Source: Candidatus Nomurabacteria bacterium
GTDB taxonomy: Bacteria > Patescibacteriota > Minisyncoccia > Phycocordibacterales > UBA918
Assembly: GCA_020632095.1 (NCBI GenBank)
Contig: JACKGF010000001.1
Location: forward strand, 262,549-326,548
DNA: 64,000 nt
Direction of reading: 5' to 3'
Shown: positions 17,788-58,603 of the stretch, piece by piece
Numbering within the stretch: the first letter of the stretch is position 1
Layout of the letters: each line of letters begins with the position of its first letter
Notes under the pieces: generated by a model
The model's database searches: none
Told to the model about the DNA's origin: nothing
What the model saw: only the letters and a program-made list of their open reading frames with translations
Made by a program: the position numbers and the translations under genes

Positions 17788-18120
17788 CTACTTAACTGAT
17801 TCAATCTTGATCTTAGCGTAGTGCTGTCGGTGTCCGATTCTTCGGTCACGGTTACTCTTTGCCTTGTATCGTACAATTGTCAGCTTCTTGCCCTTAGTGT
17901 CACCAAGGTGAGTTGCCTTAACCTTTGTACCAGTGTGTGGAGTACCAACCTTTGCAGTTGTACCATCGTCAGTCAATAATACAGTATCAAATTCGATAGA
18001 ATCTCCCTCTTTATAATCATGAAGAAGCTCAACCTCTAAAGTATCGCCTTCTCGTACCACATATTGCTTACCGCCGGTAGCGATCACTGCAAATGGGGTG
18101 CTGGTTGTTTCTGTTGCCAT
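17788..18120 (-). CDS. rplU: 50S ribosomal protein L21
   Basis: FAVIATGGKQYVVREGDTLEVE is the L21 N-terminus. Start placed at MATETT; the ORF track extends to 18138. Confidence 0.8.
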   Translation of the reverse strand: MATETTSTPFAVIATGGKQYVVREGDTLEVELLHDYKEGDSIEFDTVLLTDDGTTAKVGTPHTGTKVKATHLGDTKGKKLTIVRYKAKSNRDRRIGHRQHYAKIKIESVK

Positions 18121-18239
18121 AGTGCGGAGAGTATACAAGAATTCACAGTTTTTGCAATGTTTTGTATAACCCCAAAGCTGTTTCTATAATGCTATATCAC
18201 CCAACCAGATTTCAAAATAGTTTAAAAGCTAGATAAGGT

Positions 18240-18258
18240 GGGGAACCAGTGGTTCCCC
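18240..18258. terminator. hairpin GGGGAACCA gt GGTTCCCC downstream of the GC-rich gene
   Basis: Palindrome followed by a T-run on the minus strand. Confidence 0.45.
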
Positions 18259-18268
18259 GAAAGATGAA

Positions 18269-19570
18269 TCAGACTGACATAAATTGACCAGTCCTCGACT
18301 TTTCAGGCCGGCTGGCCTTCGGAGCCGGAGCAACCTGCCTCGACTGAGTCTTCGTTGCCGGTTCGCCAGTGGCCTGACGAACCATCAGACCGATGGTGTC
18401 AATGCTGTTCTGGCTAACCTGGTACACTTCGTACCACCGCTTGTCGTCGCAAAGCACCGCGACGTTGACTGGCACCTTCGGGCGATTTGCCTTCAGAAGC
18501 GCCAGCTGTTCACGTGTGGCGTGACGCGCAACTACCGGCTTGTCACCGGGTTTGCGCTTTTCGTCGCGCTTCTGGAAGGAACTGAGTTGCCCCAACGGAA
18601 CTTCCATCGACTGTCCGCCGGTACTCTGCTGACTTACAGCTGATGCTGCAGATCGTGACGTTGCTTCGGCGAGATTGAGCTCGGTAAGCGATACCTTGCC
18701 ACCCTTCGTCTTGTTGACGGTGAAGGCAGCTATCACTCGTTTTCCGTCCGAAGACAGGATTACAGCTATCTTGCCGTCGTCGAGCCGCTTGGCGACCTCT
18801 TGATCCGACACGACGTAGCCGAACAGTTGCTTACCATCCGGCAGAGCGAAGGAACGTCGATTCTCGAGAGACTGCAGACGCAGTTTTTCCGTGCGGCGAG
18901 CTTCGGCCGCGGCCGCGGCCTCGACTGCTTTGCGACGACGTTCCTCGGCAGCGGCCTTGACCTCTGCTTGACGACGTTGCGCCGCCGCTGCCCTTTCTTG
19001 CTGCTGGCGTTGCAGTTCGTAGTTCTGCTCGGCGGCGCTAAACGCCACTTCACAGACTTCCTGCACAGCGATCAGCCGCTTGAGGCGAACTGCCTCGGCT
19101 ATGTCAGCCTGATTGTTACGGTCGAGAGGATAATGCACCCCACGCTCTGTAACCAGCCAGACCTTGTCGACGGTCGCGTCGTGAGGCATACCGGTCAGCC
19201 GGTAGATGACCCACTGACCGTCGACCTCGCCGATAAACACTAGCTGGTCACGTCCGTCGAGATGATCCTTGGCCAGGAACAGCAACTGCTCCCCTGCCTC
19301 GATTCGCGTGAGTGTCTCACGCGAGTCAAAAAACGCTGGAAGAAAGCGAACGACACAAAACGTCGTTTCTTCTCCTGCTTCCAGCTCGTAGTTGTAAAAG
19401 GTGCCACCATTGATGACACCAGGAAACCCTACTGCTGTTAGTTTGACGTTCATGCCTTTTCTCTCCTTGGTTAATTTCAAAAGAGATAGCCCGTCATCGA
19501 CTATCCGCTCAAAGTAGCGATTGCCACCCTCAGCGGATAGTCGATAATCTGATTCGTTGTAAACGAACAT
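18269..19570 (-). CDS. hypothetical protein with anomalous composition (about 60% GC in a 40% GC context); two globular regions flank an Ala/Arg/Glu-rich coiled coil
   Basis: Uninterrupted 433-aa ORF. GC-rich codons throughout (GCGGCCGCGGCCGC runs). No recognisable catalytic motif. Confidence 0.6.
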   Translation of the reverse strand: MFVYNESDYRLSAEGGNRYFERIVDDGLSLLKLTKERKGMNVKLTAVGFPGVINGGTFYNYELEAGEETTFCVVRFLPAFFDSRETLTRIEAGEQLLFLAKDHLDGRDQLVFIGEVDGQWVIYRLTGMPHDATVDKVWLVTERGVHYPLDRNNQADIAEAVRLKRLIAVQEVCEVAFSAAEQNYELQRQQQERAAAAQRRQAEVKAAAEERRRKAVEAAAAAEARRTEKLRLQSLENRRSFALPDGKQLFGYVVSDQEVAKRLDDGKIAVILSSDGKRVIAAFTVNKTKGGKVSLTELNLAEATSRSAASAVSQQSTGGQSMEVPLGQLSSFQKRDEKRKPGDKPVVARHATREQLALLKANRPKVPVNVAVLCDDKRWYEVYQVSQNSIDTIGLMVRQATGEPATKTQSRQVAPAPKASRPEKSRTGQFMSV

Positions 19571-19628
19571 CTAAAAATCCTATTTAGAATAATAGCATAT
19601 TTGTACTAAAAGTCAAGGGGTGTAGAAA

Positions 19629-20753
19629 TTATTCCTCAGTTTTATGTGGTTTATCCAGCACAATAGCCTCGGCGCCGATGCCCTCGCCGGCGATTTTCAT
19701 TACGTCTTTGTCGATTTTACCTAGTTCTTTTTGGGCAGTATTGTAGTGATTAACGGTAGTTCCGAGACTAGTGCCTAATTTTTCAAAGTAGGAGTTGTAG
19801 GCGTTGAGATGACGACCGAGTTGCTCGACTTGCTTGCCTATCTGCTTGGCGCTTTCCTCAATTTTGAAGGCTCTGAAACCGTACAAAACTGACTGTAGGT
19901 AAGCCGCAAAGGTAGTTGGTGACACAATAATCACATTCTTATCTTTGTACGCGTAATCAATCAATGAGCGGGTATTCACCTTGACCGATCCGACTTCATT
20001 TACCAACAAGTCATAGTAAATGGCTTCCGCTGGTATATACATAAAGGCAAAAGGCAACGTGCCGTCTTTCGGTCGGATATATTTAGCAGTTTCGTCAATC
20101 CGCTTTTTGAGGTCATTTTTAAATTCTTTTTCCAATACTTCCCTTTCATTGTCATCGGTCGACTCAACCAAGCGACGATAATTATCGAGCGAGAACTTGG
20201 CATCAACCGGAATCATACCGTCCTTGGTTTCGATTACCGCATCGACCGCCTCTCCTCCTGGAAATAGATATTGGAGTTTGTATGCACCGGCTGGAAGGAT
20301 ATTTTCTAGAGCCAACTGCAAGCTAGCTTCACCTAGATTACCCCGTTGTTTTTGGTGTTTAAGCACCTTTTCAAGACTTTGTAGTTGTTCCGCCACGGTA
20401 AAGACTTGCTTGGAGCTCTCCCCTACCTCACTCACATGTTTTTGCACATTCAACAGCTTCTCGCCGACACTTTCCTGAATATACTTTATTTGCTCATTTA
20501 CTTCCTTTGAGATGGTCTGCATTAATTTCTGGCTTTCCGAAAACTGACTACGGGTTCCCTCCTGCATCGCTTTACTTGACTCGCTCAAACGCGAATCCAT
20601 CGTGCGACTAAGTTCCTGTAACTGTTGTTGCAAAAGCATCATATTATCGCCACTTTTATCTGGCAGCTCCTCCTTAGGTTGGAACAACTTATAAACCACA
20701 AATACGTTCACTACTAGCAAGATTATTATGAGTGCAATCAAAATTATTTCCAT
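19629..20753 (-). CDS. rmuC: DNA recombination protein RmuC
   Basis: N-terminal transmembrane helix, long coiled coil, and a C-terminal RmuC nuclease-like domain (FMYIPAEAIYYDLL). Confidence 0.7.
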   Translation of the reverse strand: MEIILIALIIILLVVNVFVVYKLFQPKEELPDKSGDNMMLLQQQLQELSRTMDSRLSESSKAMQEGTRSQFSESQKLMQTISKEVNEQIKYIQESVGEKLLNVQKHVSEVGESSKQVFTVAEQLQSLEKVLKHQKQRGNLGEASLQLALENILPAGAYKLQYLFPGGEAVDAVIETKDGMIPVDAKFSLDNYRRLVESTDDNEREVLEKEFKNDLKKRIDETAKYIRPKDGTLPFAFMYIPAEAIYYDLLVNEVGSVKVNTRSLIDYAYKDKNVIIVSPTTFAAYLQSVLYGFRAFKIEESAKQIGKQVEQLGRHLNAYNSYFEKLGTSLGTTVNHYNTAQKELGKIDKDVMKIAGEGIGAEAIVLDKPHKTEE

Positions 20754-47803: not shown

Positions 47804-48392
47804 CCACCGCTAAAAGCGGTGGTATGAACTCCAGCCTAGAAGGCATAAATTATTAGTGGTTAATGTTAACCTTTAGAATCTCGTTCTTGTTGCCATTTCA
47901 CATACTTTCGTATCTGTTCTTCATTCAGACCCACACTGGATACACAGTACCCACGACTCCACAGGTGTCTTCCCCAGTATCGTTTGGTCATGGTTTTTTG
48001 TTCTTGAAATAATTTGAGAGCAGTTTTTCCTTTCAGGTATCCCATCATATCTGAAATGGAGTATTTTGGTGGTATGGAGATTATCATGTGGACGTGATCT
48101 GGTTGGATATTTATTTCTTCAATCGTTACTTGGTCTTTTCTTCCACAGAGTTGGTAGAAGTAGTTTCGTACCAATACTTCGGCTTTTCCTTCTAGGATTT
48201 TATATCGATATTTAGGACAAAATACGATATGATAAGTACACAGCCATACGGTGTGTGACAATTTCTTATATTGTGTTTTCATAGCTTCAGTGCCTTCATC
48301 ACTGGAGCTATGTTAATAGTACTAGATAGACTGGTGGAACCTTTTTTTTGATCACCACCGCCGGAGGCGGTGGTTTAGGCTGGCGCAATTAA
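47796..48392 (-). mobile_element. IS200/IS605-family element, copy B (about 597 bp, essentially identical to 16993..17589)
   Basis: Identity with copy A begins and ends at the same terminal palindromes. The right end supplies the last codons and stop of the ORF 48375..49058. Confidence 0.8.
47866..48282 (-). CDS. tnpA: IS200/IS605-family transposase TnpA (identical to 17063..17479)
   Basis: Identical 138-aa protein. Confidence 0.85.
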   Translation of the reverse strand: MKTQYKKLSHTVWLCTYHIVFCPKYRYKILEGKAEVLVRNYFYQLCGRKDQVTIEEINIQPDHVHMIISIPPKYSISDMMGYLKGKTALKLFQEQKTMTKRYWGRHLWSRGYCVSSVGLNEEQIRKYVKWQQERDSKG

Positions 48393-51117: not shown

Positions 51118-51189
51118 GGTCCCATCGTCTAGCGGCTAGGACACTTGGTTCTCATCCAAGAAACCGGGGTTCGATTCCCCGTGGGATCA
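51118..51189 (+). tRNA. tRNA-Glu (anticodon CUC), CCA not encoded
   Basis: Cloverleaf: acceptor GGTCCCA / TGGGATC, D-arm GTCTAGCGGCTAGGAC, anticodon stem CTTGG/CCAAG with loop TTCTCAT, T-arm CGGGG TTCGATT CCCCG. Resembles bacterial tRNA-Glu. Confidence 0.75.
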
Positions 51190-51238
51190 CAAATCAGCCG
51201 GCCGAAATGTGAATACATTTCGGTCGTTGCTGTTTGTA

Positions 51239-51373: not shown

Positions 51374-51393
51374 CGATTCCCCGTGGGATCACA
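51374..51393. repeat. 20-bp direct repeat of the tRNA-Glu 3' end (CGATTCCCCGTGGGATCACA); att-like
   Basis: Identical to 51172..51191 inside the tRNA. Confidence 0.65.
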
Positions 51394-51448
51394 CATTGAC
51401 AAAACACTATTTTAGTGTATTATTTTAATAGTTTTGATTATCCTCCAG

Positions 51449-52400
51449 CTACCCCTCAAGTAGGACAGATTGCTCATAATAATACTCACTCGAAATCCTA
51501 AAATCAATACACTCTTTCGGTCGGTCATTCAAGAAGGCATGAATCTCATTCAATTCTTCTTGAGTAACAGACGCAATGTCTCTCCGCTTTGGAACAAAGC
51601 ATCTAATCCAACGATTAGTATTCTCTACCAGTCCCTTCTCCCAAGAATGATAAGGGTGGCAGAAATAGATTGGAGCCTGTATGATTTGTTCTAGTTCCGT
51701 CCAGTGACGGAATGCAATGTCGTTGTCGGTGGTGATACTCTTGACTATAATATTGCTAAACATTTTAGAGAACGCTGCACTGATTGTGTGGCGTTTTCTA
51801 TTGGGTAACTGACGTACCAAGCTGTATTTAGTTAAACGGTCAGTAGCCACTAGAAGTACGTATGGACTGTACTTAGAGACAATGAAGTCTAGTTCATAGT
51901 GACCTAGCTCATGGCTACCAAGAGGACGAATATCTATATATTTACGGCCATCATCAGTTGAGTTTATGTGTGGTCCGTTTCGGACCACTTTTTCTTTTTG
52001 TTCCAACGCCAGAATAGTCGATATTCCAGACCACGACTTTCTATGAACTTGTATATAGCTTTGGCGGAACAGGTAACACCGAGCTCTCGTTTGAGATGTC
52101 CACTGATTTGTTTAGGGGTCCACTTCTGCTCTAGTTTGTCTTCTACGAAGCTTACTAGGAAACTATCCATTGCCACCTTGAGACACTGACGTTTAGCCCG
52201 CCAACGACGTTGACGTTTACTTTTAGTTGGGCTTGCTTGGCGTCATAGACTCCATTAACCCTATTCTTCTTTAGTTCCTGACTGATGGTGTTGGGACTAC
52301 GTTTGAGGAAGATGGCTATTTCTCTGATCAAACTCCCTGCGTTCAATAACTTTTCAATTACGAAACGCTCCTCAAATTGTATGTGTCTGTATGTTTTCAT
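51449..52400 (-). pseudogene. frameshifted IS30-family transposase
   Basis: HTH N-terminus (SLIREIAIFLKRSPNTISQEL) and the DDE C-terminus (HPYHSWEKGLVENTNRWIRCFVPK) lie in different frames. Confidence 0.65.
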
Positions 52401-55382: not shown

Positions 55383-55518
55383 GATTTCCCGAACTCCTAC
55401 CGTTCTTTCCGTCTTTTCCAGCTTTTATTTTAAAACAATTTCATCAACCCAACTATCCTTGCTATTTTGATCTCCGGTATCAACTCGAATGAGCAGTGGC
55501 ATGGATGTATTAAATAAC

Positions 55519-55545
55519 TACGGAGGACCGTCCTCCGTAGATGCA
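55519..55545. repeat. perfect hairpin CTACGGAGGA ccg TCCTCCGTAG
   Basis: 10-bp stem, intergenic. Confidence 0.5.
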
Positions 55546-55685: not shown

Positions 55686-55967
55686 CTACTGCATGTAATC
55701 AATAACAATTTCAATTATGCTTTTAGTCTCGTCAGAGCAATTCTTAAAACTTATACGATCCAATACATTAACGCCGTAATTTCTAATCAGCTCACTCAAT
55801 AATGCGTGACAAAAAGATTGAGTTAATGACTCAACATTTTCAAAATCTAACACCAAGTCTTCACCACCTTCCAAAATTGGTGTAATTAACTCTAATCTGA
55901 TGTTCTTAGCCTTATCTTTATCTTCCGCAAACGAACCAGCTATTGGATAAATTTCTATTATTTTCAT
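55686..55967 (-). CDS. STAS-like small protein (DUF4325-type anti-sigma-antagonist-like fold), partner of the upstream GHKL ATPase
   Basis: 93 aa. Overlaps the upstream gene's stop by 4 nt (ATGA). Size and composition fit DUF4325/STAS-like proteins; assignment is by similarity, not proven. Confidence 0.45.
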   Translation of the reverse strand: MKIIEIYPIAGSFAEDKDKAKNIRLELITPILEGGEDLVLDFENVESLTQSFCHALLSELIRNYGVNVLDRISFKNCSDETKSIIEIVIDYMQ

Positions 55968-56938
55968 ATAAATTTAGGCTTTTTATATTTTTTTTCTCGT
56001 CTGGAGCGGACAGTAGAAGTGTATACCTCACGAATACTTTGTAATAATGCGGAAAAATTTTCGTTATCATCTAGGGTCATATCAACACCAATTACCGTAC
56101 CATTCCATATAGGCAGTCCTTCTTCTAAAGTGTGACGGTCAGCAAAAGGATCACTATTTAAACCCGTGTCAGGTTTTTGCTTTTTTAACAATTTAAACAA
56201 GGTGTCACCACTATATATTACAAAATAGTCCTCATTTATTCGAGAGATAGACTTAGTAAAAAATAAACCCGCTCCTGCATTATAGTCAGTACCACCTTCC
56301 TTACTTGTTGTCCCAGTAATTCCTGGTGTTAATGCTAGTTGGATAGCATCCTTATCTGTCTTAACAATATGAAAGCGACTGATTGTTTTTTTAATACCAA
56401 CCCCGGTATCTACAATTCCAAGGCGTACTGTATTCGTTTTAGCATGATATTGAGCAGCAACAAAAGCTCCATGTTCTGAAGCAGAGTGCTCGAGAACATT
56501 TCTCACTAATTCACTTACTATATATTTTATCGACTGAGACTGCTGCTTATCAAGATGAAGTAAAGGAATCATATCTTCAATGAAATGAGAGAGAACTTTT
56601 GCATCCTTAATTTGAGTAATCGGTATAAAACGCCCTGCTGATTCATGTTCAACAATATCCATTTCAGAATTCAATTGAAGAAACCGGAAAAGACGCATCC
56701 TCTCGAAATAGTGTTTTGAAGTAGCAGTAAATTTCTCGCACAAAATTGGTTTTTCTTGATCACTTTCTGCACGAACTTTTACACCTAAAGAAGCAATCAT
56801 ACACAAAACAACAGGATGAACAGACATCCATTTTTCATTTGCTGTTATGTAAATTTCTTCGGGATTAGAAAAATCTACCAACTTAATAAATGCATTTATA
56901 TTGCCCAGAAACGCACTATTTGGAATATGTATTTTCAT
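55964..56938 (-). CDS. GHKL-family ATPase (RsbW/HATPase_c_2-like) with about 140-aa N-terminal domain of unknown function
   Basis: N-box ELVRNVLEHS, G1 DTGVGI, G2 GAGLFFT of histidine-kinase-like ATPases. Confidence 0.6.
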   Translation of the reverse strand: MKIHIPNSAFLGNINAFIKLVDFSNPEEIYITANEKWMSVHPVVLCMIASLGVKVRAESDQEKPILCEKFTATSKHYFERMRLFRFLQLNSEMDIVEHESAGRFIPITQIKDAKVLSHFIEDMIPLLHLDKQQSQSIKYIVSELVRNVLEHSASEHGAFVAAQYHAKTNTVRLGIVDTGVGIKKTISRFHIVKTDKDAIQLALTPGITGTTSKEGGTDYNAGAGLFFTKSISRINEDYFVIYSGDTLFKLLKKQKPDTGLNSDPFADRHTLEEGLPIWNGTVIGVDMTLDDNENFSALLQSIREVYTSTVRSRREKKYKKPKFI

Positions 56939-56953
56939 ATAACTTACCTACTA

Positions 56954-56987
56954 TACCGGGAATTTACTAAAAACACAATTCCCGGTA
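56954..56987. promoter_or_regulatory. 34-bp palindromic operator, copy 1 (TACCGGGAATT-N12-AATTCCCGGTA)
   Basis: Perfect 11-bp inverted arms, 16 nt upstream of the GHKL ATPase start. Confidence 0.6.
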
Positions 56988-57021
56988 ATTTAAGCCATAT
57001 TTTGACAATTTTGTATATTTT

Positions 57022-57055
57022 TACCGGGAATTTACTAAAAACACAATTCCCGGTA
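57022..57055. promoter_or_regulatory. 34-bp palindromic operator, copy 2 (identical direct repeat of copy 1)
   Basis: Identical 35-nt unit TACCGGGAATTTACTAAAAACACAATTCCCGGTAA. The two copies bracket an AT-rich putative promoter segment (TTGACA at 57002..57007). Confidence 0.6.
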
Positions 57056-57115
57056 AAATTTCTTTATACTTAGGTACGAACGGGTCCCAAATCGCTCCCT
57101 TTAGGGTCACTAGCA

Positions 57116-57146
57116 GAAAAAGAGCACGCCTAGCGTGCTCTTTTTT
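57116..57146. terminator. bidirectional rho-independent terminator
   Basis: AAAAAGAGCACGCctagGCGTGCTCTTTTTT. Confidence 0.6.
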
Positions 57147-57343
57147 CGACACAATATCTAGTTTCAATGATTACTCTTTAACGATAAGTGATTCTGTTAA
57201 AAGCCTTTGTTTTCATACACTTTATGTTACTAAAGTGTTGCGTTAGATTCTTGAAGGTAGCTTACGTAAGCTTGACTATACCTAATAAATAGGTTATATT
57301 TTAAAGTGGCTGTCCACACTCGGATAAACAAAGGAGAAACACT

Positions 57344-57775
57344 ATGAGAATCAGCACACTCTTTTCCATTCTTTCCCTCTTCGTCATCACCCCGATGGCG
57401 ATCCACCTAGGAGAAAAAACCGACTGGTTGTGGATCAATGGAGCCGGCAGCCGCGACGCAATCGAATCCGCTTGCGCCATGATCTTTATCATCGGTTGCC
57501 TCGCTTTGTGGTACAGGCTGTCTTGGATGTCTATTGACAGTGATCGGCAAGAAAGAGGAGACTTCAATCACATGATCATCATGGGCCTTACAACTATGCT
57601 GAGTGCTTTCTGCTTCAGCTATCTGTACGCCTTCACCGTTGCACCAATCAAGAATGGTGTTTGGTTCGACGGATGGCTGATTTACATGGTCATAGGGCTG
57701 CTTCCGGTCATCATGGAGCTCAATTGCTCTGTTGGAGAAATTATCAAAAACCGAAGCGCTCGAAGCATTCATTAA
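57344..57775 (+). CDS. orphan 4-TM membrane protein with own promoter, strong RBS and terminator
   Basis: Promoter TTGACT-17-TATATT (57270..57298), RBS AAAGGAGAAA, ORF 143 aa at about 49% GC, terminator 57806..57843. Minus-strand ORFs overlapping it are judged spurious. Confidence 0.55.
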   Translation: MRISTLFSILSLFVITPMAIHLGEKTDWLWINGAGSRDAIESACAMIFIIGCLALWYRLSWMSIDSDRQERGDFNHMIIMGLTTMLSAFCFSYLYAFTVAPIKNGVWFDGWLIYMVIGLLPVIMELNCSVGEIIKNRSARSIH

Positions 57776-58054: not shown

Positions 58055-58603
58055 CTACTCCCCTGTCGTGTCGCGTAGCTTCCCTACTTCCAAAATTTTT
58101 CTTTTTTCTTCAGCGTTTTCTTCACCAGCTACCGAAGCAGGGTCTGCTGGATCTAGCTCATTGTGTCCTAGTTTATCTAAATGAGACAGTACTTCCTCAA
58201 TGGTGCTATCTACAAAATTTCCGTAGGCCACAACAACAACAGGAATATGATTTGGGTTTTCTAATTTCTCCACTAACTTTCCTTTAAGATATTCTGGCTC
58301 AAAAATGTAAATTTTTTCTGGCTGTAGTTCTTTTACTGTTTCAGACAACTCCACCGAAATTGCCTTAAAGTATCTTAGTAGATTTTGCTCGGTAAGTTCT
58401 TCATGTGGCGAGCCAGAACCATACCGTATACCATTACCACTTCTAACAAAAAACCCTTCGTTGTCGCTGTAGGTAGCAGGATGCTCTTCCACCTCATCTA
58501 AATATGTAAGCTTTCCTTCTTTAAGGCTATACAACTTACCGTGTTCTTTAGCTGAAATCACCACTAGTCCATTTAGTTTGTTTCTATTTTTAATTGTATT
58601 CAT
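58055..58603 (-). CDS. hypothetical protein (acidic C-terminus)
   Basis: 182-aa ORF; no confident family. Confidence 0.35.
   Translation of the reverse strand: MNTIKNRNKLNGLVVISAKEHGKLYSLKEGKLTYLDEVEEHPATYSDNEGFFVRSGNGIRYGSGSPHEELTEQNLLRYFKAISVELSETVKELQPEKIYIFEPEYLKGKLVEKLENPNHIPVVVVAYGNFVDSTIEEVLSHLDKLGHNELDPADPASVAGEENAEEKRKILEVGKLRDTTGE

Follow-up and report, generated by a model that had tools for sequence, protein, structure and literature searches.

In the CapK/CapS and VapK/VapS/VapC systems, a STAS-GHKL kinase activated by ssDNA phosphorylates a STAS protein (Chambers et al., EMBO J 2026, PMC13373217). CapK carries an HTH at its N-terminus, and the wHTH at the C-terminus of CapS recognizes TTAA half-sites; CapS binds palindromes of one half-site with either a 1-bp ('narrow') or a 10-bp ('wide') spacer, and the pair sits immediately upstream of an immune operon under its control. 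In VapKSC, the C-terminal helix of VapS (residues 94-116) inhibits VapC (PMC13373217).

The gene pair described here, K and S, lies in a 64,000-nucleotide stretch of a Candidatus Nomurabacteria genome (the window). An initial annotation concluded that the pair matched no system that could be named, but CapK/CapS and VapK/VapS/VapC are clear relatives, and the best PDB match of S in a profile search is VapS (9z7o, E=9e-4). We propose, with a probability of roughly 0.6, that K-S is a minimal, self-contained kinase-substrate switch of the CapK/CapS-VapK/VapS class, controlled by a module-encoded repressor that is most likely a K dimer. The domain folds, the strict K-S coupling, the invariance of the catalytic and acceptor residues and the conserved position of the operator in two domains of life are shown below; the DNA-touching protein, the trigger and the output of this switch are inferred. 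The features of the locus are:

55964..56938, minus strand: K gene, 324 aa, SpoIIAB-like GHKL kinase
56609..56938, minus strand: K residues 1-110, STAS-like N-domain (beta-alpha-beta-alpha-beta-alpha-beta)
56069..56608, minus strand: K residues 111-290, GHKL (Bergerat) kinase/ATPase core
55964..56068, minus strand: K residues 291-324 and stop codon, long C-terminal helix and basic tail RxRRxKKYKKPKFI
55686..55967, minus strand: S gene, 93 aa, acidic STAS/DUF4325 protein
57022..57056, minus strand: distal operator, TACCGGGAATT-N12-AATTCCCGGTA, with arms that can be lengthened to 14 nt; a weak -10-like TAAAAA comes next
56954..56988, minus strand: proximal operator, 35 nt identical to the distal copy, right half-site abutting the -10
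56950..56978, minus strand: putative promoter, -35-like TTGTGT (56978-56973), 17-nt spacer, -10 TATAGT (56955-56950)
57116..57146, no strand assigned: bidirectional terminator-like hairpin, A6-GAGCACGC-TAG-GCGTGCTC-T5, found by eye and unlisted in the consensus scan
55518..55540, minus strand: terminator-like hairpin, 146 nt 3' of the S stop, from the consensus terminator scan

The K + S cassette measures about 1.3 kb. The stop codon of K and the start codon of S share a 4-nt ATGA overlap, in support of the translational coupling proposed initially. The 55518..55540 hairpin is likely the end of the two-gene operon, and the 57116..57146 hairpin, directly 5' of the operator region, may insulate the cassette against read-through. 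Pfam confirms an IS30-type transposase (HTH_38 + rve) near the pair, and a second, decayed IS30 copy is present in the window. The RelE/AbrB TA pair reported beside the module was also recovered, as a MazE/AbrB + ParE/RelE-like pair. Comparison with 80 relatives, whose neighbours differ, confines this IS30/TA island to the Nomurabacteria window genome.

The description of K as an RsbW/SpoIIAB-type GHKL protein was borne out. It has a Bergerat fold with N-box, G1 and G2 motifs, and SELVRNVLEHS (142-152), DTGVGI (177-182) and NAGAGLFF (220-227) fall where they had been placed; the Pfam matches are weak (HATPase_c, E=5.9e-5; HATPase_c_2, E=1.9e-3; both under gathering cutoffs). The nearest folds of the GHKL domain are SpoIIAB, RsbW and SiaB, and a search of the PDB by sequence returned no relative of K. 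Within this core, E143/N147/H151 of the N-box, D177xGxG of G1 and NAGAGLFF of G2 are invariant. The N-domain, first described as 140 aa of unknown type, is actually about 110 aa long and STAS-like; modelled in isolation it reaches a pLDDT of only 58.6 (low confidence). It contains the invariant stretches PNSAFxGN (6-13), W37, H41-P42 and HExAGRFxP (98-106). The C-terminal helix comprises residues 293-318 (low pLDDT), and the C-terminal segment has a family median net charge of +5. K has a pI of 9.4 vs. 5.4 for S (family median). No HTH match was found in K or S with Pfam or NCBIfam, K beginning directly with the STAS-like domain.

The STAS/DUF4325-like nature of S is well supported by Pfam (DUF4325, PF14213; E=4.8e-13, 49 bits vs. 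a cutoff of 23) and by its homology to VapS, in agreement with the initial annotation; DUF4325 is also called in the genes downstream of the relatives' K. The start of helix alpha2 bears the invariant residues T49-Q50-S51-F52-x-H54-A55...S58...R62 (T49 codon, 55823-55821; S51 codon, 55817-55815), of which the TQSFxHA portion is invariant in 80 sequences and kept in distant subfamilies. VapS Ser48 aligns to Q50 of S, between T49 and S51, and we predict from sequence that the T49/S51 region is the phospho-acceptor site.

K-S thus resembles VapKSC in three respects: K combines STAS and GHKL domains without an HTH (VapK being compared by its published architecture), a small STAS protein homologous to VapS is encoded directly downstream, and this protein has a conserved Ser/Thr at the start of helix alpha2. 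It differs in having no VapC/PIN gene in any of the 80 loci (the listed top 25 neighbour families by frequency do not include PIN), in an S that ends at residue 93 and lacks the VapS 94-116 helix, in a conserved operator over its own promoter, and in its presence in archaea. A search for VapK in plasmid and phage records, made for comparison, yielded only a decayed Leptotrichia locus.

The 80 relatives span CPR bacteria, Elusimicrobia, DPANN and other archaea at 54-77% identity (54-60% between bacteria and archaea), with 26 archaeal loci. S adjoins K in 79 of the 80 genomes, mostly with the 4-nt overlap, and natural K-S fusion proteins exist. The wider family comprises 3829 clusters at 50% identity (E<=1e-3). 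JGI labels relatives 'anti-sigma regulatory factor'. At the DNA level, homology between loci extends from -57..-61, the edge of the first half-site, to 2-17 nt past the S stop. The insertion sites of the pair are scattered among housekeeping genes, and its occurrence across the two domains is patchy; K-S travels between bacteria and archaea as a cassette with its own conserved operator.

Is K-S an RsbW/RsbV-like partner switch acting on a sigma factor encoded elsewhere? In structure, its GHKL domain comes nearest to SpoIIAB and RsbW, its STAS partner has a predicted phospho-acceptor at the same structural position as in SpoIIAA and RsbV, the database labels just mentioned point the same way, and the window contains an ECF-type sigma factor some 15 kb from the pair. 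However, none of the 80 relatives has an adjacent sigma factor, nor is one a conserved neighbour, so that the absence of an associated sigma factor, already remarked upon from the window alone, applies to the family. Neither of the two outcomes named initially as refuting, a sigma factor beside the pair in relatives or a small protein lacking a STAS-like fold, was observed. Clustering of neighbours across 80-81 loci revealed no conserved third gene, and thus, as far as this clustering reaches, no associated PP2C phosphatase. The K-S gene order, kinase first, is also the reverse of that of SpoIIAB/SpoIIAA and RsbW/RsbV, and the extra N-terminal STAS-like domain of K is absent from anti-sigma kinases. 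Lastly, 26 loci are archaeal, 23 of them with an archaeal TATA box. To our knowledge, archaea have no sigma factors; since the family has archaeal members, a sigma-directed switch is effectively refuted and we consider it extremely improbable.

We return to the self-contained switch and to the palindromes upstream of K. The two copies noticed initially are indeed identical, over exactly 35 nt (56954-56988 and 57022-57056). They lie 68 nt apart, each an 11-14 bp perfect inverted repeat with a 12-nt spacer, and the proximal half-sites are at -49 and -23 from the K ATG. They had been thought to bracket the promoter, but the arrangement is not a simple bracketing: the weak -35 TTGTGT sits in the spacer of the proximal operator, whose right arm abuts the -10. 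This promoter was assigned by homology with the TTGACA/GGTATAAT layout of relatives. Its -10 is 11 nt from the K ATG, leaving a 5' UTR that is very short or absent. Sequences within one mismatch of TACCGGGAATT occur 5 times in the window vs. 0.93 expected, a number reached in 0/100 shuffles; the fifth (41091), a single half-site, falls within an ORF that was named Hsp20-like by eye from its translation.

The half-site TACCGGGA is found upstream of K in 77/80 loci, and exact copies are about 530-fold denser in the -150..-1 region than elsewhere (15.4 vs. 0.029 per kb). Bacterial loci have half-sites placed around TTGACA and fused to TATAAT, at about -55/-46 and -27/-18; in archaeal loci they surround the TATA box, at -86, -58/-49 and -10. 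TATA boxes occur in archaeal-labelled loci only (23/26) and sigma-70 elements in bacterial loci only. Since the start codon follows the -10 by only 5-11 nt (mode 6), the K-S mRNA is probably leaderless. Most loci have narrow palindromes (17 bp, TACCGGGAATCCCGGTA), and wide ones occur in the window (34 bp) and in L001, L035 and L080. Further copies are rare: extra operators precede other genes in L009, L012 and L017, and L132 and L161 have orphan operators. A metagenome scan, run to look for a trans-regulon, found 126 exact palindromes, 64 of them directly upstream of a K gene; among the others were about 45 chance matches in coding DNA or terminator-like hairpins and about 10 plausible orphan operators.

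The palindromes could instead be recombination or mobility sites, REP-like elements, terminators or host-factor sites. The cassette is clearly mobile, with DNA homology starting exactly at the first palindrome, and some metagenome palindromes are terminator-like, flanked by A and T runs. Against this, the palindromes occur on the 5' side only (with another copy in 3/80 loci) and keep a fixed register with the -35/-10 or with the TATA box and ATG. No recombinase was associated with the pair in the neighbour clustering, and no host factor is common to CPR bacteria, Elusimicrobia and DPANN archaea. The sites are also upstream of the likely TSS and so not transcribed. These points make a non-operator function very improbable. 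A role of the palindromes at the RNA level was considered and rejected, as Rfam gave no match for them and they precede the likely TSS.

The initial annotation attributed tight repression to a dimeric regulator that it could not name. The palindromes do have the sequence behaviour expected of operators; the regulator, on the other hand, is almost certainly the K-S pair itself, because in bacteria and archaea alike the operator is retained together with the two genes and the core promoter alone varies. In a sister subfamily (B, 43-49% identity), the promoter follows the same design with another half-site, ACCCGTAG. The residues that distinguish subfamilies A and B fall largely in the K N-domain (12/21, 5 of those in residues 6-12), and in S only 3/30 conserved positions differ, all conservatively. 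Charge, subfamily-specific residues and the sister half-site favour the STAS-like N-domain of K as the operator reader, and we regard it as a candidate operator- and/or ssDNA-binding domain. A covariation between K T108 and operator base 7 was also pursued: in two independent lineages with T108 substituted (L010 and L044), 5/6 half-sites have C7 (G7->C) vs. 2/268 elsewhere. It was dropped after failing in 2/3 new test cases, with a partial fit in the third.

Several points argue against K as the reader. Neither K nor S has a recognisable DNA-binding fold, and we know of no STAS domain that reads dsDNA. Furthermore, the repressor in CapKS is CapS, via its wHTH, and what the kinase groove binds is ssDNA rather than duplex (PMC13373217). 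One could imagine a CapS-like S, which would bind the half-sites as a dimer joined through its alpha2 surface until phosphorylation of S51 by K splits the dimer and frees the DNA. In CapS, binding of narrow and wide palindromes with one half-site is experimental, and K-S loci show the same mixture of spacings; the N-terminal helix of S moreover includes an invariant motif with K and R residues, FAENKDxARxIR. Yet S is acidic and, at 93 aa, no more than the STAS core, without a wHTH, and its conserved residues are near-unchanged both in subfamily B, which uses the other half-site, and in subfamilies that have no palindrome. We consider S an unlikely repressor.

The palindrome-free subfamilies (P0395, P0451, P0474 and P0433) keep K and S, with no TACCGGGA or other obvious palindrome upstream. 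Autoregulation through an operator of this kind would be limited to subfamilies A and B, since these distant subfamilies lack a comparable palindrome; this counts against extending the operator to the superfamily as a whole.

Comparison with CapK/CapS illustrates what is shared and what has changed. In both, a GHKL kinase gene is followed by a STAS substrate gene, no phosphatase is present, and palindromes with one half-site in narrow (1-bp) and wide spacing overlap the pair's own promoter, suggestive of an autoregulatory loop. In contrast to CapK/CapS, K has no HTH, S has no wHTH, no immune operon lies downstream, the half-site is TACCGGGA instead of TTAA, and the likely DNA reader would be the kinase rather than the STAS protein. 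In a more specific version, the K N-domain would read the duplex operator sequence-specifically, and S would compete K off the DNA and be consumed by phosphorylation. The operator would then take the place of the sigma factor of classical partner switching, making the cassette domain-of-life-agnostic. We hold this version as tentative and less likely than not.

For the self-contained switch as a whole, we envisage the following sequence of events. At rest, the module-encoded repressor would occupy the TACCGGGA half-sites overlapping the core promoter and keep the operon off; it would most likely be a K dimer bound through its basic N-terminal STAS-like domain, or possibly a K-S complex. Upon receiving a signal, K would phosphorylate S at the expense of ATP, with the invariant S51 (or T49) as acceptor. 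If CapK/VapK are a guide, this signal may be ssDNA lodged in the STAS-GHKL groove. The evidence for ssDNA activation and for phosphorylation of the STAS serine is indirect and consists of the invariance of the catalytic and acceptor residues and of W37 in the STAS-like domain. The K-S-DNA assembly would then rearrange and the operon be de-repressed. With no phosphatase encoded, fresh unphosphorylated S would reset the switch, and translational coupling would ensure that S is made in fixed stoichiometry with K. Its own repressor and operator, a probably leaderless mRNA and a second gene without its own ribosome-binding site would make the cassette portable, with only the core promoter hexamers or TATA box re-tooled after transfer between bacteria and archaea. 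As the pair is not accompanied by an effector when it moves, its output would most likely be K, in the role of a kinase that arrests growth or regulates in a TA/abortive-infection manner; an alternative would be regulation in trans of the rare extra operator copies.

Such an output would be compatible with K-S being a type II-like TA module, in which K is a toxic kinase/ATPase, S its inhibitor and the K-S complex the autoregulator. In hipBA, a type II TA operon, the toxin HipA is a kinase. K-S shares with type II TA systems such as hipBA a compact overlapping bicistron, palindromic operators over the promoter and a scattered, horizontally mobile distribution, and another TA pair and IS elements are its neighbours in the window. 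K-S shows no homology to these systems, however, and its conservation (54-60% identity between bacteria and archaea) is far above that usual for TA pairs. Experiments have shown the relative VapKSC to be an anti-phage system of the TA type, but its toxin is VapC, not the kinase (PMC13373217). Taken together, a TA function is possible but doubtful.

A last alternative is an anti-phage sensor or regulator that, like CapKS, would serve defence genes in its vicinity or in trans. This echoes the initial suggestion of a conflict or defence cassette, which the neighbours of the 80 relatives, heterogeneous and mostly housekeeping, did not support. CapKS and VapKSC themselves regulate or constitute immune systems, and the gene directly downstream of the subfamily B pair encodes an N6/N4 methyltransferase in L087 and a type I HsdR in L089. 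The rare extra operators before other genes would fit regulation in trans. Phage family phrog_5816 spans K + S and phrog_3364 is also homologous; nevertheless, only 3 of 2.9 million viral contigs have the pair, and viral-contig scans with two divergent kinases as queries gave no match. Similarly, one PADLOC DrmA profile (1750 positions) covers K-like and S-like regions at its N-terminal end (positions 76-254 and 317-389 only), but the locus has no helicase and hence does not qualify as DISARM DrmA, and no other PADLOC system model matches K-S.

The genomic surroundings likewise speak against a defence role. In family A, 34/72 downstream genes are convergent, and of the 10 scanned among 12 close co-directional ones, 2 have no Pfam match and 8 are housekeeping genes (RuvA twice, LigA, FtsK, ABCE1, ABC ATPases and GH1); the ABCE1/RLI neighbour belongs to archaeal locus L003. 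After S, the next largest neighbour cluster covers 11 loci and probably consists of ABC ATPases, that of the window included. Matches to AAA_21, SMC_N and ResIII among neighbours were followed up as a possible defence-island link and rejected, as they correspond to ABC transporters, ABCE1 and RecQ-type housekeeping helicases. We judge a defence role improbable and retain the self-contained switch.

With these data, the CapK/VapK class of kinase-STAS signalling gains a very large family of stand-alone, effector-less pairs, abundant in CPR bacteria and DPANN archaea, groups in which we know of few regulators. Judging by its sequence, K-S is an unusually clean natural regulatory cassette for both bacteria and archaea, in which operator and proteins are kept and the basal promoter is exchanged. 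It also poses a puzzle, the sequence-specific recognition of an operator by proteins that have no known DNA-binding fold. If the N-domain of K does read the duplex, dsDNA reading would be a STAS function not known before. If the kinase senses ssDNA like its relatives, K-S could be a widespread sensor of DNA damage or invasion in organisms that lack LexA-type systems.

The gene pair lies on the minus strand of DNA from a Candidatus Nomurabacteria (CPR) bacterium: K, with a STAS-like N-domain and a GHKL kinase core, is followed by S, a DUF4325/STAS protein, and the two reading frames share an ATGA overlap. Two copies of a wide palindrome precede K.

55686-55967, minus strand: S ORF, 93 aa (ORF call)
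55964-56938, minus strand: K ORF, 324 aa (ORF call)
56954-56988: proximal wide palindrome, exact 35-nt copy, just upstream of K
57022-57056: distal wide palindrome, exact 35-nt copy, 68 nt from the proximal copy

S gave a clear DUF4325/STAS-like match (Pfam, E=4.8e-13), and K matched HATPase_c and HATPase_c_2 below Pfam cutoffs only, with a weak match to spoIIAB (NCBIfam). A known DNA-binding fold is absent from both proteins. The median pI is 9.4 for K, a basic protein whose C-terminal tail carries +5, and 5.4 for the acidic S. Both proteins open with M-K-I and share the same 13-nt start context, TTATATGAAAATA (55959-55974 and 56930-56945), which may reflect chance or a common initiation signal.

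A 90% cluster database contains more than 3000 relatives of K, and 3829 clusters of 50%-identity representatives match it at E<=1e-3. We fetched 80 genomic loci (family A), each encoding a protein 54-77% identical to the K of the window. Their bacterial sources are CPR phyla, Elusimicrobia, Omnitrophota, Margulisbacteria, Chlamydiae and proteobacterial MAGs, while archaeal MAGs account for 26 of the 80 (Woese-, Nano-, Aenigm-, Micr- and Iainarchaeota, Thermoplasmata and 'Methanosarcinales'). An S homologue directly follows K in 79 loci, mostly with the identical 4-nt overlap; the sole exception is broken by a contig end. The two proteins also occur naturally fused, and one phage family, phrog_5816, covers both. 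Clustering of all neighbouring ORFs yielded no conserved third gene, the next cluster being present in 11 of 81 loci, and the flanking genes are heterogeneous and mostly housekeeping (Pfam scans of 271 flanking proteins). Downstream genes are convergent in 34 of 72 cases; ten of the 12 close co-directional ones were scanned, eight being housekeeping (RuvA, LigA, FtsK, ABCE1, ABC ATPases and a glycosidase) and two having no Pfam match. Neither the neighbour clustering (81 loci) nor the Pfam scans revealed a sigma factor, a phosphatase, a PIN toxin or a defence gene travelling with the pair. The initial annotation had likened the module to a partner-switching pair that lacks a sigma factor. This reading is partly right: the kinase/STAS pairing, the missing sigma factor and the control by a palindromic operator stand, while the regulator, relatives and context need correction.

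The 11-mer arm of the palindrome occurs five times in the window (0.93 expected), the fifth copy being a lone half-site within an Hsp20-like ORF (labelled by eye from its translation). Across family A, TACCGGGA(A/T)TCCCGGTA or half-sites thereof lie upstream of K in almost all loci. At least one exact half-site was found there in 77/80 loci, the density being 15.4 per kb over the 150 nt that precede K vs. 0.029 per kb in the other 963 kb of the loci. The observation made in the window is confirmed and goes far beyond chance. Bacterial loci carry two palindromes, at about -55/-46 and -27/-18, with TTGACA in between and the last half-site fused to the -10 element (cccGGTATAAT). Archaeal loci show, in order, a half-site (-86), a palindrome (-58/-49), a TTTATAAATA TATA box and a further half-site (-10) immediately ahead of the ATG. 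The TATA box is present in 23 of the 26 archaeal-labelled loci and in none of the bacterial ones, and sigma-70 elements are confined to bacterial loci. Since the -10 element ends 5-11 nt (mode 6) before the ATG, the K-S mRNA is probably leaderless.

Among loci sharing >75% identity, DNA homology starts where the first half-site has its outer edge (-57 to -61) and ends 2-17 nt past the S stop codon, so that the constrained unit is a 1.31-kb cassette. Wide palindromes, which retain the outer half-sites flanking the -35 but not the inner ones, occur in the window and in L001, its closest relative; two other loci (L035 and L080) have them independently. The spacers of the two copies in L001 have diverged, which shows the wide arrangement to be ancestral to this clade and the perfect identity of the window copies to be due to recent homogenisation. 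Every family A half-site contains CCGG and CCGGG/CCCGG, common restriction-modification target motifs; one might speculate that operator occupancy is sensitive to methylation.

A perfect palindrome beyond the K promoter was found in only three of the 80 loci, and these copies could be rare trans or additional repressor targets.

L009:2480-2620: entire K promoter-operator duplicated downstream of S, before a 236-aa gene of no assigned function
L012:7640-7710: entire K promoter-operator duplicated 339 nt ahead of the usual promoter; the interval holds no long ORF
L017:6940-6970: K promoter-operator duplicated before other sequence

An exact 17-mer scan of metagenomes returned at least 126 sites in at least 120 contigs. 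Among the 126 matches listed, 64 are immediately followed by a K gene and 6 fall at the end of a contig. About 45 others are either fortuitous matches within coding sequence or hairpins of terminator-like appearance, and about 10 resemble orphan operators. This tally indicates that the operator is overwhelmingly dedicated to the K-S pair itself. Orphan operator-promoter copies were located on five metagenome contigs without K or S.

L132:3505: palindrome and TATA box before an 80-aa ORF
L161:462: complete bacterial dual-palindrome/TTGACA layout, followed by unrelated sequence
L144:1448: orphan copy
L155:2239: orphan copy
L191:596: orphan copy

The initial annotation had invoked a dimeric regulator it could not identify. 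The operator is kept with the pair in bacteria and archaea, which have no host factor in common; judging from this distribution, the palindrome binder must be K, S or both, making the pair its own predicted regulator. A sister group, subfamily B (43-49% identical to the K of the window; found in Saccharibacteria, other CPR and three IMG/VR contigs), shares the promoter design of family A but uses a different half-site, ACCCGTAG. Twenty-one K positions are conserved within but differ between the two subfamilies, 12 of them in the N-domain, including five in residues 6-12 (PNSAFLG to SNQGNLR), and only 7 in the GHKL core, although the core holds far more conserved positions. S differs at only 3 of its 30 conserved positions, always conservatively, and its signature motifs are retained even in subfamilies without any palindrome. 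These correlative data favour the K N-domain as the specificity determinant. An apparent covariation of K T108 with operator base 7, seen in two independent lineages, failed a prospective test on three further proteins.

The module had been thought to match no nameable system, yet named relatives exist. In response to ssDNA, CapK (HTH-STAS-GHKL) phosphorylates CapS (STAS-wHTH) at Ser54 on helix alpha2; the CapS dimer acts as a repressor, binding palindromes of one half-site, both narrow and wide, at its own promoter and at that of a downstream immune operon (Chambers et al., EMBO J 2026, PMC13373217). The related VapKSC system has three genes, encoding VapK (STAS-GHKL), VapS (a STAS domain followed by a C-terminal helix) and VapC, a PIN toxin (PMC13373217). 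VapS is the closest PDB sequence match of the S profile (9z7o, E=9e-4), its Ser48 aligning with Q50 of S, flanked by invariant T49 and S51. By these sequence comparisons, the pair is a member of the CapK/VapK class that lacks defining features of both named families: unlike CapK/CapS, it has no HTH or wHTH and no downstream immune operon, and unlike VapKSC, it has no VapC and its S has no VapS tail. Archaea, DUF4325 and stand-alone pairs are not mentioned in PMC13373217, nor were they found in the other literature searched. The PIN clade coupled to DUF4325 genes noted by Matelska et al. 2017 is presumably VapKSC. One PADLOC model of the DISARM protein DrmA (PDLC02567) contains K-like and S-like N-terminal regions (positions 76-254 and 317-389), implying the presence of a fused K-S sensor module in some large defence helicases.

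The local context described in the initial annotation was borne out: IS30-type transposases, one decayed and one intact, a tRNA-Glu gene and a MazE/AbrB plus ParE/RelE-like pair lie near K-S. The defence or mobile-island setting is nonetheless incidental to this genome, neighbours in relatives being mostly housekeeping.

47866-48282: Y1 transposase of IS200 type, 8 kb away from K-S (Pfam E=4.8e-39)
51118-51190: tRNA-Glu
51449-52400: decayed IS30 copy, broken into rve and HTH_38 fragments, directly after the tRNA-Glu 3'-end repeat
57116-57146: bidirectional terminator-like hairpin with A-run and T-run flanks, between the K operator region and the divergent ORF
57272-57300: promoter-like site of the divergent ORF
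57344-57775, plus strand: divergent hydrophobic ORF, 143 aa
57801-57836: terminator-like site of the same ORF
58055-58603: 182-aa ORF adjoining the island, with weak matches to bacterial eRF1-like (baeRF) families

The 3' end of the tRNA-Glu gene (51172-51194) recurs 202 nt downstream (51374-51396; 22/23 nt identical), a duplication resembling the att-type scar of an integration event at a tRNA hotspot. Elsewhere, GC content rises to 0.51 at 18001-20000 (0.39-0.45 in the rest of the window), where Rfam detected no rRNA or other RNA family.

As to output, two of three subfamily B loci have restriction-modification genes directly downstream of S, a hint that suggests a CapKS-like use in which the pair controls these genes.

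L087:4309-6165 and L089:1952-4637: N6/N4 DNA methyltransferase or type I HsdR, 2-13 nt after S, under the subfamily B operator

For the stand-alone pair, our best guess, of low confidence, is a toxin-antitoxin- or abortive-infection-like arrangement with K itself as the effector. Within the CapK/VapK class, K-S represents a new variant that is minimal and spans two domains of life. We consider the most informative result to be that the operator accompanies the pair across domains of life, and recognition of this operator without a DNA-binding fold poses a genuinely interesting mechanistic puzzle.
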